From positions 24,428,001 through 24,492,000 of the forward strand of contig OX597830.1 of the NCBI GenBank assembly GCA_951406725.2: a DNA stretch of 64,000 bases, given 5' to 3'. Position numbers and translations under genes: made by a program. Of the stretch, positions 528 to 6,390 are shown piece after piece (position 1 is the first letter of the stretch; each line of letters begins with the position of its first letter). The notes under the pieces were generated by a model. It was not told the DNA's origin and made no database searches. It saw only the letters and a program-made list of their open reading frames with translations. Origin of the DNA: Octopus vulgaris. Lineage: Eukaryota.

Positions 528-540
528 TATATATATATAC

Positions 541-1927
541 CGACCGGTGAAAATTGGGATATTGTGCTATAGGGAAGACTCCCCCAAAATGCTACTTGTG
601 TGGCATGAGGGAGCATATGCGAAGGAAATGCCCGAATACAGAAGTTTAGAAAAGGTTGGAAACAACGGTGGAAGAAAAAGCAGCCGACGAAGTGAAGAAG
701 GAGGGCAATAATAGAACGAATATGGTGAAGAGCAGGAAGAAAGAACGTAAAAAGTCACCAACTTTAGAAGAAACGAAAAAAAGTAAAGGAATAGCAGAGA
801 ATATAACATCAGAACGGTAACACTGAGGAACCAACTATAGAAGAGATAGAGGGAGCGATGGAACTGCAAAACGAAGACGAAATAGAGCGATAAAATCTAG
901 AGTTGTTTAAGCTCAAAGATAAAGAAGAACAGATGGAAGAGACGTATTTGCAGCCGGGAGAAATTACAGATACACAAACGGAACGAAGCGGTAGACTCGA
1001 GAAGGAAAACACAAGAAAAGAGAGAGAACGAGAGGAAGAAGAAATGTCGTGTAAAGAATAAGTGTGGTGAAAAAACGTAGACGGCAATATAATTACGAGT
1101 ATAATGCAACTAATGTTTTAAAAAAAATGTGAATTGAACTGCAAATGAACTGAGAATTGAACTTGTGTTATTGGTTTGTGAAATTGTTGTAAAAAAAAAA
1201 GGAAAAAATGTAATGCTTGGAAAAAAAGATAAAATAGAAAAGGAAAATAGAAAGACTAATGTGAACAATTAATGATATATTTTATACGATAATGATAAGA
1301 AGACCATCGTGGTTTCGCCTCACACTGAGACCCAATGGTATTGAGAATTAATGTGAGAAATACACGGTTCGTCTCGCAGCGGGAGTGAGTCGAACCGTCT
1401 CATTCTCATTATATCTCTTTTACTCTTTTACTTGTTTCAGTCATTTGACTGTGGCCATGCTGGAGCACCGCTTTCAATCGAGCAAATCGACCCCGGGACT
1501 TATTCTTTTGTAAGCCCAGTACTTATTCTATCGGTCTCTTTTGCCGAACCGCTAAGTAACGGGGACATACACACACCAGCATCGGTTGTCAAGCAATGCT
1601 AGGGGGACAAACACAGACAAACAAACACACACACGCTTATATATACATACATATATATGACGGGCTTCTTTCAATTTCCGTCTACCAAATCCACTCACAA
1701 GGCTTTGGTCGGCCCGAGGCTATAGTAGAAGACACTTGCCCAAGGTGCCACGCAGTGGGACTGAACCCGGAACCATGTGGTTGGTAAACAAGCTACTTAC
1801 CACACAGCCACTCCTGCGCCCTTTATATGTTAATCATTCCATCCATCATACCTCATTTGTTTTATGTTCCCGTTTGTCTTGTTATGTCCCCTCTATATAA
1901 TCAGGCCATTGTGCCTATGATAAAGAA
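541..1927 (+). mobile_element. Tx1/L1-like element 1: decayed ORF1 C-terminus (CCHC knuckle) running directly into a 3' UTR, no ORF2
   Basis: 590-631 encodes CYLCGMREHMRRKC (CX2CX4HX4C). A purine-rich charged tail with stops follows. The 3' end AGGCCATTGTGCCTATGATAAAGAA resembles the end at 3546-3569. Interrupted by a SINE at 1415-1820. Confidence 0.7.
1415..1820 (-). mobile_element. tRNA-derived SINE family A (CORE-like centre, internal microsatellite, CR1-type tail), full length
   Basis: Minus-strand head GGCGCAGGAGTGGCTGTGTGG...GGTTCAGTCCC, then GGCACCTTGGGCAAGTG, tail GACTGAAACAAGTAAAAGAG; many copies in the window. Confidence 0.92.
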
Positions 1928-1951
1928 AAAAGCAAGCCATGCTACTCCAGA

Positions 1952-3569
1952 GCCGTTTTTGAATTTATTTTTGAGAAGTGAGATGGGCTGATGCGAAACC
2001 GTCATGCTGGGCTGTGCAAGGGAAGCTGAAGAAATGCGCGGGAAACCGAGAACACATACGAGATAGAGGATGTGAATATAGAGTGTGATATGGACAAGTT
2101 GAGGAAGTACAGCAAAATGGGGAAACTAGAAGGAACGAACATAAAACTAGTCATGCCAGAAGAAGAGAAAACAGAAGAGGCAAAAAAACAGAAATTTTTA
2201 GAACATTTTCTAATGAGAACAGAAAGGTTGAGAGAGCCCCAGAAAATGAAATAGAAGATCTAATAATGAGCTGTATTGACAAGGAAATAATTTTCCTCAC
2301 AAAAGGAAAAGATTACAGGGCAGTCGCAGTAACGTTTAGAACGGAAGAAGAGGCAGCACAGAACGCTAAAGACGTGATAGAAGGAGACGAATGGATGCTA
2401 TTACCATGCACACCAGGGAAGAAATTAGTAAAAATCAGAGTTGAGCAGATACCACCAATGATAGAGCCTGAGTGGGTGATAGTGGGCATTTTAGGCGAAA
2501 GACTGCAGGAGAAGAACTCGGGTATCTTTTCGGTTTGAACAGCAGTTTTTCCTAGCGGTGTAATATGAAATTGTCACCCATAATTATGACCCTAGTATCG
2601 ATCTATTGCATTTCAATCTGTTTTAGGGTTAGGGTTAGGGTTAGGGGTGGGGGGAAGGGTATATTTTTTTCTTCACAAATGTAAATAAACCCAATCTATT
2701 TCTTAAACGAGGGACATATTCATACAGCACAGAATGTTCTTTACCTCAATAGACGCCAGTGATTGGTTGAAATTGCAGAAATTGAAGAAAATAACAACAA
2801 ATATCTTACAAACTATATAATTTTCTCAATAAAGCCAAGAGAAAAAAATGTTTTATAAACACATTCTACCAGTATACGAGGTTTAAATTTTTTTAATTAC
2901 CTAGAAATTATGTTAAAAACTGCCGTTCAAACCGAAAAGATCCCAAACGAGTATTTAAAAATGTTATTTTTGTTGGAAAGAAAAGGGACATATATGAACG
3001 TTTGATTTTAAGGCAGGAAACGAAAGGAAAGGCCACGGTTTCGCATTGCAGCGAAACTAGAGGTGGGTTTTAAGATTAATTGTAAAGTGTATTTGTAAAG
3101 TTAATTGTAAAGTTTAACCATAAAGCGTGCTTGTAAAGTTTTATTGTAAAGTTAAATGTAAAGTTTAATGTTATTTTTATTGGAAAAAAGGGACACATAT
3201 GAACGTTCATTTTAAAAGGCAGGAAACGAAAGCAAAGGTCACAGTTTCACATTGCACGAAACTAGAGGTGGTTTTAAGATGAATTGTAAAGTGTATTTGT
3301 AAAGTTAATTGTAAAGTTTAATGATAAAGTGTGTTTCTAAAGAGTTAGTGTAAAGTTTAATAGTACAAACAAGTATTTAAAATGTTATTTTTGTTGGGGA
3401 GAAAAGGAATTGTAAAGGTATTCACGGCTCGTCTCGCAGTGGGGGCGAGATGACCGTCTCATTTGCATCATAATTATATTCATTCCATTATCATTTTCCA
3501 TTCGTTTTTATGTCCCGCATGTTTTTGTATGTCCCCTCAGTATGCAGGCCTTGTGCCTATAATAAAGAG
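1952..3569 (+). mobile_element. Tx1/L1-like element 2: ORF1 N-terminal half plus 3' UTR, flanked by a 24-bp direct repeat
   Basis: ORF pieces 2072-2254 and 2266-2520 (VAVTFRTEEEA...LLPCTPGKKLVKIRVEQIPP) resemble the ORF1 fragment at 27940-28250. AAAAGCAAGCCATGCTACTCCAGA occurs at 1928-1951 and 3570-3593. AATAAA near the 3' end. Confidence 0.75.
2520..2944. mobile_element. MITE with ~30-bp TIRs and an internal (TTAGGG)4 tract
   Basis: GGGTATCTTTTCGGTTTGAACAGCAGTTTTT and AAAAACTGCCGTTCAAACCGAAAAGATCCC are inverted repeats; TTAGGG repeats at 2623-2646. Confidence 0.8.
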
Positions 3570-3588
3570 AAAAGCAAGCCATGCTACT

Positions 3589-3628
3589 CCAGACTGATGA
3601 CGAGCAAGACTCAGAAACATGTCTCTGG
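3589..3628 (+). ncRNA. Minimal type I hammerhead ribozyme
   Basis: CCAGA-CTGATGA-cGAG caaga CTCa-GAAA-CATG-TC^-TCTGG. Helix I is CCAGA/TCTGG, helix III is the palindrome ACATGT, cleavage triplet GUC (cut after 3623). A C-A mismatch closes helix II. Confidence 0.75.
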
Positions 3629-3779
3629 GTGCAGACTTAGGTGGATGGGGGTGCTTGTATCCCCCTTTCAAACATAAGGACACAGGAAATGTGTCAAGGC
3701 CGACAGGAAGCGTTGATGCTTCCTAGGGCTAAATAGCAATGGTGTGATTCCCTTTATGGGACTGTCATGTTAAGTTGAA

Positions 3780-3780
<1 letters not shown>

Positions 3781-3841
<61 letters not shown>

Positions 3842-3884
3842 TTATATACATATATTTATATACATATATTTATATACATATATG

Positions 3885-3942
<58 letters not shown>

Positions 3943-3965
3943 GTTTATATATATATATATATACG

Positions 3966-4024
<59 letters not shown>
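3781..4024. repeat. (TA)n/(TG)n compound microsatellite
   Basis: Direct reading. Confidence 0.97.
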
Positions 4025-5013: not shown

Positions 5014-6390
5014 CGTGTGTATGTGTGTTTAGTGTGTGTGAGAAAACTTATTCTATCGAGTTCTTTTGCCGAACCGTTAAGTTACGGGGATGTAAAAAAC
5101 CAAAATCATTTGTTAAGCGATGGAGTGGGAACAAATGCAAGCACACACTCCCACTTGCGTGTAGTAAGTAAGAGTGTGTGTGTGTGTGTTTGTACTTGCC
5201 CACACGCATGTGGCAATTGATGTTGGTTTGTTTACGTCTCTTAACGTAACGGTTCGCCAAAAAGAGGGGGAGAGAGGCGGGGAGAGGTGGGGAGAGAGGA
5301 AGAGAGAGAGAGAGTAAGTACCAAACTGCCAAGAATGTAAGTACTAAGATAGATTTTTTCCACTAAACCTATCATGGCAGTGCCACAGAATGAACGCAGT
5401 CCAATGACTGAAGCAGTTAGAGGAATACAAGAATAAAAGAATAAGGAAATCATGTAAATAATTCCTACACCACTGAGGCATCGAACTCATTTTAAAACGG
5501 TTAAATAAAATGTACTTTTAGAAGGGGTTTCTGGGATTAACTGGTGTGTAATGTTTAAATTTATCATGAATAATTTTAGACCATATATGTGTGTATGTTG
5601 CAGGGTGAGTGTGTGTATGTGTGTGTGTGTGTGAGAGAGAGAGAGAGGGGGGGCACACGTGTTTTTGTGCATGAGCATGTGTGTGTGTGTGTGTGTGTTT
5701 TGTGAATGTGTGTGACCGTTTGTGTGTCAGCGCTCCTGTCTTTGTGTTTGACCCCACACTGTTTGACAAATCCGGTGTTGTATTGTTTACGTCCCCGTAA
5801 CTTAGCGGCTCCGAAGAACGAACCGATATAATAAGTACTAGACTTTAACAAAAGCGAGTACTAGACAGAACCATAGCTAGGGGGAAGGCAATGCTGCCGG
5901 TTCGGCCCGGGCGACGCTTTAACGGGACAGCACTTTGGGGTTTGTTGTACACGCCTGTGTATGCTTGGGTCCCCCGGAGCTGGAGATGCAAACTCAAGTG
6001 GTGCACAATGCGGTACACACTCTAACTATTCCACTCTACCCCCGGACTAATATATTATAAACATATAATATATTAGTCATATCTTACCATCTTACCATCT
6101 TCAAACGAAAAATCCTTGATACTATTTCTGGGAATGCTTTGTTGATAGGTATGGATCATCAGAAGAGACCAAGGGATTAGAAGAAGAAAAAAACATTATA
6201 ATATGATTAAGCTCGTGAGAGATACTCTACATCTTCGCTTGGGTTGATGGAAATAATAATCACACAAGGCTCAGAATCAAATCTCACCATTTTTTTTAAA
6301 TGGCATGTTTTTGACAACGTAGTTTTAGTTATAAGAAAGAATAAGCCAGGTTGTTCATAGTACAAACACCTGGAATCTAATATATTTGAT

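Follow-up and report, generated by a model that had tools for sequence, protein, structure and literature searches.

Two LINE derivatives are stacked at one target site

The window, i.e. the whole 64,000-nucleotide stretch of octopus DNA that was analysed, carries near its start two LINE derivatives followed by part of a repeat with a hammerhead motif. The features of this locus are as follows.

528..540, no strand: (TA)n microsatellite, left edge of the composite (from sequence)
538..1930, + strand: element 1, ORF1-only LINE derivative, 5′-truncated (match to full-length copy L122)
1415..1820, + strand: SINE in the element 1 3′ UTR, a later, unrelated event (breaks the match to L122)
1931..1951, + strand: target-site duplication (TSD) copy 1, 21 bp (comparison with empty units)
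1952..3572, + strand: element 2, ORF1-only LINE derivative, 5′ end intact (sequence and related copies)
2520..2944, no strand: MITE within element 2, bounded by terminal inverted repeats, a later event (30-nt inverted arms, 93%)
3573..3593, + strand: TSD copy 2, doubling as the helix I 5′ strand of the hammerhead (comparison with empty units)
3594..3633, + strand: type I hammerhead motif (sequence and covariation; activity predicted)
3573..3784, + strand: 3′ portion of a family A hammerhead repeat, ∼354 nt, non-LTR retrozyme type (comparison of repeat copies)
3781..3980, no strand: (TA)n-rich microsatellite, right edge of the composite (from sequence)

Element 1 starts at about nt 690 of the 1.7-kb full-length copy L122 and is 87% identical to it over 939 nt. 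At the truncation point the trinucleotide TAC (538-540) is common to the microsatellite and the element, other copies of which read GAATTAC/CGACCGG (slash, point of truncation). What remains is a broken C-terminal part of ORF1 with a zinc knuckle and the 3′ UTR, which ends with GATAAAG (up to 1925) and an A tail (1926-1930); its SINE also matches inside locus L136, and related pieces lie at 5046-5090. Element 2 retains ORF1 remnants at 2030-2519, the C-terminal half of this ORF having been lost at the MITE. Its 3′ UTR contains an internal duplication of ∼205 bp (2960-3191 / 3167-3407, 84%) and ends with AATAAAG (up to 3567) and an AGAAA tail (3568-3572). Neither element encodes a reverse transcriptase (RT) or endonuclease. 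The ORF1 fragments of the window were not recognized by Pfam; the element 2 piece weakly matches ORF1 of an intact autonomous element (20% identity, E 2e-5).

Each element is followed by the same 24-mer (1928-1951 and 3570-3593), and the second copy abuts the CTGATGA at 3594. An earlier note on this DNA had taken the entire 24-mer to be the target duplication. Empty units, which read ...CAGCT/AGCAAGCC (slash, insertion junction), narrow this to 21 nt (1931-1951 and 3573-3593), since the leading AAA is accounted for by the element tail. The same note favoured independent insertions over local duplication, and this is borne out: the two 3′ UTRs are 80% identical (139/174 aligned nt) and match different subfamilies. 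A tandem duplication of one element might have been suggested by the 43-nt direct repeat, 95% identical, that spans both 3′ ends, and the 24-mer could have been the element's own terminus. We consider the chance of either negligible. In addition to the divergence of the UTRs, different target sequences follow other copies, and a 20-mer of the target has no LINE 3′ end ahead of it at 26 of 30 sampled loci; together, these findings rule out both. Nor is the target a chance match, the 20-mer having 593 matches compared with 0 for a reversed control.

The target is a hammerhead repeat of the non-LTR retrozyme type

The motif comprises CUGAUGA (3594-3600), helix II (3601-3613), GAAA (3614-3617), a palindromic mini helix III, ACAUGU (3617-3622), and the 3′ strand of helix I (3624-3633). 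Cleavage is predicted after C3623, 51 nt beyond the element 2 tail. Rfam returned no match at the gathering threshold anywhere in the window and, at E ≤ 1, no hammerhead among 95 matches at eight loci; single-strand folding gave no signal either (z 0.1 and 0.3). We therefore base the fold on the motif and on covariation. Across 26 copies, 80.8% of cells were paired, compared with 20-50% once the partners were slid; double changes occurred in 14 of 16 pairs, and C3-G8 was replaced by U3-A8 in three copies. Unlike in known retrozymes, helix II is flanked on both sides by an extra, often unpaired base (columns 53/66, paired in 12/26 copies).

The repeat occurs as a trimer of 354-nt units (L017) and in units of 345 nt (L250), i.e. 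within the 170-400-nt range that defines non-LTR retrozymes, whose tandem units are non-coding and each contain a type I hammerhead. Unit length, hammerhead type and the small palindromic helix III all resemble non-LTR retrozymes, the hammerheads of Penelope pLTRs and newt satellite 2 as described in the consulted parts of PMC7229834 and PMC4209133. As in non-LTR retrozymes, copies show 5′ inversions and 3′ ends clustered at microsatellites. Pieces of Penelope-like RT and GIY-YIG endonuclease are present at some loci, none of them linked to the hammerhead repeat, and a search for an autonomous Penelope-like element carrying the repeat identified none. Most copies of the repeat are empty. At the window locus, the family A repeat ends 192 nt past the core (common end cluster of the family, +187 to +208), and the upstream half with the promoter motif described below is absent. 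The empty-site join at L251 was also present in contigs from two of four sequencing runs; these contigs are uninformative on transcript starts, ends and level.

ORF1-only elements and their autonomous partners

Full-length copies of the ORF1-only elements measure 1.6-2.1 kb and have TSDs at both ends. Their single ORF is homologous to ORF1 of autonomous elements (about 27% identity); they lack ORF2 and have a tail of their own. HAL1 (half-L1) is a non-autonomous, ORF1-only element of this general type. The octopus elements resemble it in organization and in that ORF1 is under purifying selection: median dN/dS was 0.33, 0.17 and 0.24 in three dS bins above 0.15 (149 pairs; 25 copies), and 0.66 for the eight closest pairs. 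They differ from HAL1 in being target-specific and in having a Tx1-like partner rather than a mammalian L1.

The earlier note called for a search for such partners. Autonomous APE-RT families exist, and one is intact. ORF2 scored above the cut-off for Exo_endo_phos, RVT_1 and zf-RVT, ORF1 for zf-CCHC, and the endonuclease found its best solved-structure matches in L1 endonucleases; the nearest named matches were a Ciona pol-like protein (27%) and a Chlorella RT (25%). An ORF2 with APE, RT and zinc finger next to a zinc-knuckle ORF1 places the partners in the L1/Tx1 group of APE-type LINEs, which at the level of this group agrees with the Tx1-like lineage proposed earlier. One family with the AGAAA tail was located through a noisy pattern count (97 versus 39 in the control) that served discovery only. 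A FastTree phylogeny of the ORF2 C-terminus included 54 copies and four outgroups; its long branches are frameshifted rows. A young family classed as 'untargeted' was examined for a preference for Pol II promoters; its 17 flanks were slightly richer in CpG than 387 background tiles (p 0.01-0.02; the flanks are non-independent).

Several families prefer the hammerhead repeat

To classify flanks, 100 of 171 exact matches to the element 3′ end were examined. Seventy-three of 93 3′ ends lay in hammerhead repeats, spread over several divergent families, compared with 1.4% of background positions; about 20 of the 93 were off target. Likewise, the AGAAA-tail ORF2 family was in retrozymes in five of seven copies, four of them in the window's register (see below). 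The intact young autonomous family, counted from a search not conditioned on the target, was on target in 20/20 copies, all in one retrozyme family. PMC4494074, as far as consulted, takes more than 20% of like flanks as the mark of target preference. Here, like flanks were accompanied by TSDs and tandem stacking, at 73/93, 20/20, 15/15 and 5/7 in four groups. Flanks are thus not random, empty units prevail and, its three tail A's aside, the 24-mer is not the element's end, so that none of the observations that would have undone the earlier note was made. An L1/Tx1-type lineage, target-primed and stacked in a hammerhead-bearing repeat, stands as proposed.

TSDs were 11-21 bp long, and their 3′ limits ranged from 18 nt before the hammerhead core to level with it (−18 to 0). 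The exact fit at the window, where the TSD does stop at the core as noted earlier, is therefore one case within a range. Nicks were often at C/A, both on and off target. One subfamily (3′ ends > 90% identical) occupied targets A, D and E, which differ at the nick, and sister families with 84-88% identical ORF2 used GGAAGCG, ATACTTA and ATCGCTT starts.

Insertion position follows an snRNA-type promoter motif

In this genome, ATCAGT lies at −56 to −61 from +1 in 34 of 35 distinct U1/U2/U4/U5 promoters. The hammerhead repeats carry the same motif and a TATA-like box, spaced as in the U1, U2, U4 and U5 genes. Having a PSE motif at the distance from +1 that is fixed in this species, they match a Pol II snRNA-type promoter, with +1 predicted from the spacing. 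A U6-type model was rejected because ATCAGT is lacking from the U6 cluster, where a TATA is found at −30, and we adopted the U1/U2-type reading. An upstream palindrome was also considered as an anchor and discarded: it consists of the PSE-like motif and an inverted copy, and the latter is missing from snRNA promoters.

Insertions fell into two registers. The distance from motif to nick was 55-60 nt at 13 of 14 register 1 sites and 63-69 nt at all 15 sites of register 2, to which the window's lineage belongs; about 1% of random 95-mers scored like register sites. Of the on-target sites, 25 of 29 reached a PWM score of at least 5, and none of the 18 off-target sites did; the four on-target sites with low scores include the target of the young family. 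Empty units of the window's subfamily have a PSE-like motif 84-89 nt ahead of the core, and in L122 it lies 64 nt ahead of the nick. Judged by this spacing, the register 1 nick coincides with the predicted retrozyme start, and the register 2 nick, including that of the window, is predicted to lie ∼7-9 nt later. Positions scattered with an SD of 1.4 relative to the motif versus 2.5 relative to the core in register 1, and of 1.5 versus 1.8 in register 2, so the motif is only modestly tighter, for copies that are not independent. Moreover, whatever the anchor, homology among the retrozyme families would by itself place the nicks in a fixed alignment column.

Targets outside the retrozymes were provided by register 1 sister families of the window's register 2 lineage. 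Five of 15 copies of one family were at +1 of U2 and ten in retrozymes, and the ORF2 C-termini of the two classes were identical. Both share TTYATCG at the nick, which occurs ∼1.4 million times genome-wide (58 in 235 kb) and is too frequent to account for 15/15. Another sister family was found at +1 of U1 with a 17-bp TSD (L415, L416). Target-derived 5′ pieces that start at +1 were also present: U1 nt 1-18 on L202/L405, an ORF1-only copy located within a (GT)n tract, U1 nt 1-17 on L408, and a donor-target piece on L208. The gene starts of 20 U5, 15 U4 and 12 U6 loci showed no Tx1 3′ end, and there was no register 2 insertion in U1 or U2 among seven and 52 pattern matches (matched strings only).

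The earlier note proposed a ribozyme-targeting element whose read-through transcripts could be cut. Spelled out, the ribozyme itself would be the target or the benefit: its core, or the hairpin of helix I, would be recognized in DNA, and self-cleavage would trim the 3′ end of the element. The window TSD, which stops exactly at C3 and covers the helix I 5′ strand, the location of register 2 nicks 15-22 nt from the core, and the covarying, conserved fold would all suit this proposal. In contrast, the U1 and U2 targets have no hammerhead, TSD ends are spread from −18 to 0, and the nick tracks the upstream motif. Trimming should leave a 3′ extension that stops at the cleavage site, which was found in 0/18 off-target TSD copies, and composites retain an uncut ribozyme. 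Furthermore, a helix III of this kind, a 1-2-bp palindrome, is reported to need dimers (PMC4209133, in the part consulted), and here the copy is single. Both roles of the ribozyme thus appear very unlikely.

A further explanation is the sequence specificity usual for Tx1-type LINEs. Each family's APE endonuclease would read a degenerate sequence around the nick, and the lineage would have begun on snRNA 5′ ends or retrozymes and hopped between look-alike start-site targets. Indeed, the endonuclease is described as the main determinant of target choice in the clade (PMC4494074, consulted in part), and the confinement of one family to a single target family (20/20), the TTYATCG common to U2 and retrozyme nicks, and the frequent C/A nicks on and off target are in line with it. 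The shared motifs are short and very common, however; targets A, D and E of a single subfamily are unlike at the nick, sister families that are 84-88% identical in ORF2 use three different starts, and it is the promoter motif that is missing off target (0/18). We regard this explanation as unlikely.

The locus holds two independent, stacked insertions of a LINE group whose nicks keep a set spacing from an snRNA-type promoter motif. We think it probable that the integration complex of this group is anchored on the initiation complex and not on the ribozyme. On this promoter-anchored reading, the retrozyme ATCAGT would function as a PSE and be bound by SNAPc/TBP. ORF1p or ORF2p may bind the initiation complex or exploit open DNA at the start site, and the APE endonuclease would then choose a nearby bond, often C/A, by a weak local preference. 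A sequence-reading layer is needed as well, because all copies of the intact young family lie in a single retrozyme family. Each TSD would restore the target site, which would allow elements to stack. Target-derived 5′ pieces starting at +1 suggest that the inserted element is transcribed from the borrowed promoter. Having no ORF2, the ORF1-only elements would be mobilized in trans, putatively by the APE-RT family that shares their AGAAA tail and register. More tentatively, the lineage could be tethered to an SNAPc-type Pol II snRNA initiation complex and insert at +1/+9 of any PSE-driven unit, with thousands of retrozymes acting as landing pads and promoters and their Penelope-type machinery spreading the insertions; we hold this broader proposal to be possible rather than probable.

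Relation to known target-specific elements

Target-specific Tx1-clade LINEs include Keno in U2 snRNA, Tx1 in Tx1D, Tx1-Mar in Mariner-N4, Kibi and Koshi, and the targets listed in the consulted part of PMC4494074 comprise DNA transposons, LTR elements, U2, U5, 5S, satellites and microsatellites; the word Penelope does not occur in that part. The octopus elements share with this clade the APE-RT-zinc-finger ORF2, the zinc-knuckle ORF1, TSDs of 11-21 bp, stacking around one TSD, a mobile element or snRNA gene as the target, and non-autonomous riders with the same target (same source). Unlike the members described there, they use hammerhead retrozymes and U1/U2 at +1, with one family in both retrozymes and U2, and where they insert is tied to a promoter motif further upstream even though the sequences at the nick differ.

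In this respect they resemble TRE5-A, NLTR-A and Ty3 at Pol III genes, which observe a fixed distance from the promoter and not a fixed sequence. According to the part of PMC5911963 consulted, ORF1 protein of TRE5-A, an APE-type LINE of Dictyostelium, binds TFIIIB, and yeast Ty3 inserts at the initiation site. That protein contact is reported, whereas the octopus one is suggested by the positional pattern. Unlike for TRE5-A and Ty3, the promoter in octopus belongs to the Pol II snRNA type, as its motif is that of U1/U2/U4/U5 and was not seen ahead of the U6 cluster, and insertion is at or 9 nt past +1, in sense orientation, and disrupts the target. Newt satellite 2 also has an snRNA promoter (PMC2220036, consulted in part), as the octopus repeat has the motif of one.

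Target choice by Tx1-type LINEs is usually credited to sequence reading by the endonuclease; near-identical elements at +1 both of U2 and of unrelated ribozyme repeats point to guidance by a promoter complex. The question is open to experiment, since young copies that are intact, more than one natural target and a promoter motif that can be moved are all available. If SNAPc tethering is true, it would be a Pol II counterpart of Ty3 and TRE5 targeting, retrozymes would be safe, self-amplifying landing pads, and switching among snRNA genes by Tx1-type elements would reflect promoter tethering and not re-tuning of the endonuclease. An snRNA promoter motif in mollusc-type retrozymes also offers a clue to the transcription of these abundant RNAs. 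For targeted gene delivery, it is of interest that such a LINE places 5 kb at a defined promoter and does so with precise 5′ ends.

Some insertions appear to have been moved with the retrozyme

We classified 64 hammerhead-flanked copies, with correction by eye. About 32 had the upstream target half and a TSD, and five were tandem; ∼25 had neither upstream half nor TSD, and ∼10 of these showed a 5′ inversion. About 40% of on-target copies have the appearance of composites that Penelope-type machinery moved at a later time. Could such movement explain the entire pattern, a few chance insertions into a mobile repeat having been amplified as composites? The ∼25 copies, their inversions, and the window composite, which lies between (TA)n tracts and terminates at a usual retrozyme end, would be expected if so. 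On the other hand, ∼37 of the 64 copies keep both halves or are tandem, in many combinations of subfamily and target family with differing TSD lengths; even the truncated copies L165 and L177 retain both target halves, and snRNA genes are struck at +1. As an account of the whole pattern, hitch-hiking is highly improbable; it is refuted as the sole cause and remains a contributor.

The window locus is probably one of these Penelope-moved composites; a search for its donor locus found none. The two stacked elements and the 3′ part of the repeat would have been copied as a single uncleaved RNA into a (TA)n tract, probably by Penelope-type machinery; alternatively, the present structure could have arisen by later deletion. 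Composites of this kind amount to layered parasitism, in which a LINE enters a retrozyme and is then moved by the retrozyme's machinery.

The target is a hammerhead-bearing repeat

Two stacked ORF1-only L1/Tx1-type LINE copies lie in the window (G000:C17:24428001-24492000) before a hammerhead core, CTGATGA, at 3594. As the earlier note had described, both are followed by the same 24-mer (1928-1951 and 3570-3593), the second copy abutting the core. The stack and its neighbour are as follows.

148-527: MITE with ~28-nt terminal inverted repeats, within a (TA)n tract immediately left of the stack and separate from it
Element 1: 5′-truncated, with a SINE inside
Element 2: half of ORF1 lost at a MITE

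The two elements belong to different subfamilies, their 3′ UTRs being identical at 139/174 positions. Searching the 2.8-Gb genome with a 20-mer of the 24-mer returned 593 matches (≤ 1 mismatch) and none for the reversed control. Empty target sites, postulated in the earlier note, do exist: 26 of the first 30 loci lacked a LINE 3′ end before the 20-mer, and most read ...CATCTGCAGCT-AGCAAGCC...CCAGA-CTGATGA. The 24-mer is therefore target sequence for 21 nt only, the AAA being the element's tail.

The target unit is a non-coding repeat of the non-LTR retrozyme type (hereafter retrozyme; 354 nt per unit in the trimer L017), with about 2,790 first-look candidates of the window's family in the genome. 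Repeat 3′ ends fell in two clusters, +187 to +208 and +250 to +264 relative to the core, and frequently lay at microsatellites; 5′ inversions were common. Rfam did not find a hammerhead in the target repeat. Across 26 natural copies of several families, 80.8% of cells paired (sliding partners, 20-50%) and 14/16 pairs showed double changes, scored on a structure drawn from the window copy and hence biased in its favour. C3-G8 was replaced by U3-A8 in three of these copies. The predicted hammerhead has one extra base beside helix II on both sides. A palindrome of 1-2 bp forms its helix III, and PMC4209133 reports hammerheads of this kind to be active only as dimers. The U3-A8 core occurs in the retrozyme families of L250, L135 and L210, and other families carry U4→C (CCGAUGA), cores that may be inactive.

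Census of insertion sites

The exact element 3′ pattern matched 171 sites, the first 100 of which were classed by script as hammerhead-flanked (64), tandem (5), other (23) or not this element (8). Inspection by eye showed one of the eight, L057, to be a very short element followed by a hammerhead, and three of the 23 others to begin with target sequence. Among these first 100 matches, tabulation of the 3′ flanks placed 73 of 93 copies on target and 20 off, against a background of 1.4%. The 64 hammerhead-flanked copies, split by script into five classes (17, 5, 16, 11 and 15), were then judged by eye: ~32 had the upstream target half and a target site duplication (TSD), 30 of them full-length; five were tandem; ~25 were truncated and lacked the upstream half (~10 of them 5′-inverted); and two were left unclassed. 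Setting the ~25 truncated copies aside leaves ~37 direct insertions on target, compared with 20 off target. TSDs measured 11-21 bp, and ends lay 0-18 nt before the core. Whereas direct on-target copies were almost all full-length, 15/18 off-target copies with a TSD were truncated; a sub-lineage with a GTCAG 3′-UTR variant was mostly off target and truncated. This is a real, target-specific LINE system.

The earlier note had also suggested that the ribozyme could cut read-through transcripts past the element's 3′ end. None of the 18 off-target copies with a TSD carried a trimmed 3′ extension, and the ribozyme therefore seems to be a bystander for the LINE.

ORF1-only elements and autonomous partners

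Full-length relatives of the window elements measure 1.6-2.1 kb and have a single ORF without RT, whose core ends in a zinc knuckle. This ORF1 is ~27% identical to that of autonomous elements, and dN/dS was 0.17-0.33 between diverged copies (25 copies). These elements are HAL1-like, as HAL1 is commonly defined. A short element at the same target (L131:960-1325), in which a piece of endonuclease gene is fused directly to the 3′ UTR of the ORF1-only family, is a second kind of non-autonomous derivative.

The search for autonomous partners was successful, yielding ORF2 with APE, RT and zf-RVT domains. Among solved structures, the best relatives of its endonuclease are L1 endonucleases; no named Tx1 reference was retrieved among the relatives of ORF2. 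The ORF2 family with the window's AGAAA tail, the first branch in the ORF2 C-terminal tree, has seven copies, five in retrozymes and four at the window's register. All 20 copies of a young family whose open ORF2 frames span 1,140 codons lay at one retrozyme family (17 direct, three tandem; 17-bp TSD). A further young family, with unrelated flanks, is nested within the targeted ones and has therefore likely lost its targeting or altered it.

Outside retrozymes, a young family whose ORF2 frames are open over 1,148 codons (L241-L249, L258, L259) forms head-to-tail arrays of up to ~9 copies with a 5,277-bp period (e.g. G000:C9:59.20-59.25 Mb and C5:29.18-29.20 Mb). Since its relative L247 lies ~28 nt downstream of a TATAAAA box and its flanks are slightly CpG-rich, the family may have a preference for ordinary Pol II start sites.

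Nick positions follow an snRNA-type promoter motif

Retrozyme nicks fell into two registers, 25-32 nt (register 1) and 15-22 nt (register 2, the window's) before the core, downstream of a conserved ATCAGT and a TATA-like box. ATCAGT lay 56-61 nt before +1 in 34/35 distinct U1, U2, U4 and U5 promoters, on which the motif matrix was itself trained. At 13/14 register-1 sites it lay 55-60 nt before the nick, and the 14th, L162, which was mis-scored, has it at -58 on inspection. At 15/15 register-2 sites the distance was 63-69 nt; ~1% of random 95-mers reach such a score. From this matching spacing, register 1 would be the predicted start site, with register 2 ~9 nt later. The motif scored at 25/29 on-target vs 0/18 off-target sites, the 29 junctions being those left after 10 rows were dropped (repeat match, tandem, older double junction, ambiguous or spurious TSDs).

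snRNA genes were themselves hit. Sister-family insertions lay exactly at U1 +1 (L415, L416; 17-bp TSD) and U2 +1 (L436, L443), and one off-target ORF1-only copy carries a U1 5′ end. One family of 15 copies had five at U2 +1 and ten in retrozymes, with identical ORF2 C-termini and a TTYATCG at the nick in both target classes; TTYATCG, however, occurs ~1.4 million times in the genome. Thus the note had named the right object, a hammerhead repeat hit by a specific LINE, but given ATCAGT spacing and the U1/U2 +1 sites the cue is probably the promoter, not the ribozyme.

Several results weigh against a promoter cue. The strings matched in two pattern searches (7 and 52 matches) did not place the window lineage in U1 or U2 genes, no insertions were seen at the 20 U5, 15 U4 and 12 U6 loci examined, and one family is confined to one target. 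Moreover, motif distance is only modestly tighter than core distance, because the retrozyme families are homologous. An AATAAAG-AGAAA-like string immediately before a degenerate U1 5′ end (G000:C14:40643842-40643869) could, by its sequence, be the window lineage at a U1 copy.

Fixed motif spacing, TSDs, stacking and shared targets were observed, and some 5′ pieces begin at +1 (L202/L405, L408, L208). In the proposed mechanism, promoter tethering, ATCAGT would act as an active PSE, the integration complex would be held at the initiation complex, and the endonuclease would pick a local bond nearby. The element would be transcribed from the target's promoter, which perhaps explains full-length on-target and truncated off-target copies. 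We regard such tethering in its broad form as somewhat favoured, and a strict SNAPc form as a possibility falling just short of even.

At the window locus the repeat lacks its promoter half and breaks off at one of its usual ends, with (TA)n on either side of the stack and repeat. The promoter half could have been lost by later deletion; these features together argue instead that the stack probably formed elsewhere and then moved as one RNA.

The literature searched contained no report of hammerhead repeats as targets of a Tx1-type element, or of such an element following a PSE; earlier annotation in Repbase, a subscription paper or a supplement is possible. The examined portions of bioRxiv 10.64898/2026.07.22.740005 (Tx1, octopus, nested, target site) and PMC7229834 (Tx1, octopus, TATA) make no mention of these terms. 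Comparison papers were PMC4494074 (target-specific Tx1 elements), PMC5911963 (position-specific TRE5-A and Ty3), PMC8869645, and PMC2220036 (snRNA promoter of newt satellite 2, citing Coats 1994).

Other loci

The U1 cluster (L411-L430, G000:C18:48.97-49.21 Mb) holds at least 24 gene copies, one with stacked LINEs at +1. U2 genes are clustered at C3:20.78-20.84 Mb and at C23:43.31 Mb; U5 genes lie at C25 and U4 at C4:66.16 Mb. At L130, L492 and L427, LINE 3′ ends precede short sequences matching neither the retrozyme set nor Rfam, possibly further PSE-driven units. A ~2.4-kb tandem array (L144, L145; G000:C8:33.51-33.52 Mb) mixes Penelope-like RT, helicase-like pieces and ORF1 pieces of this LINE group.
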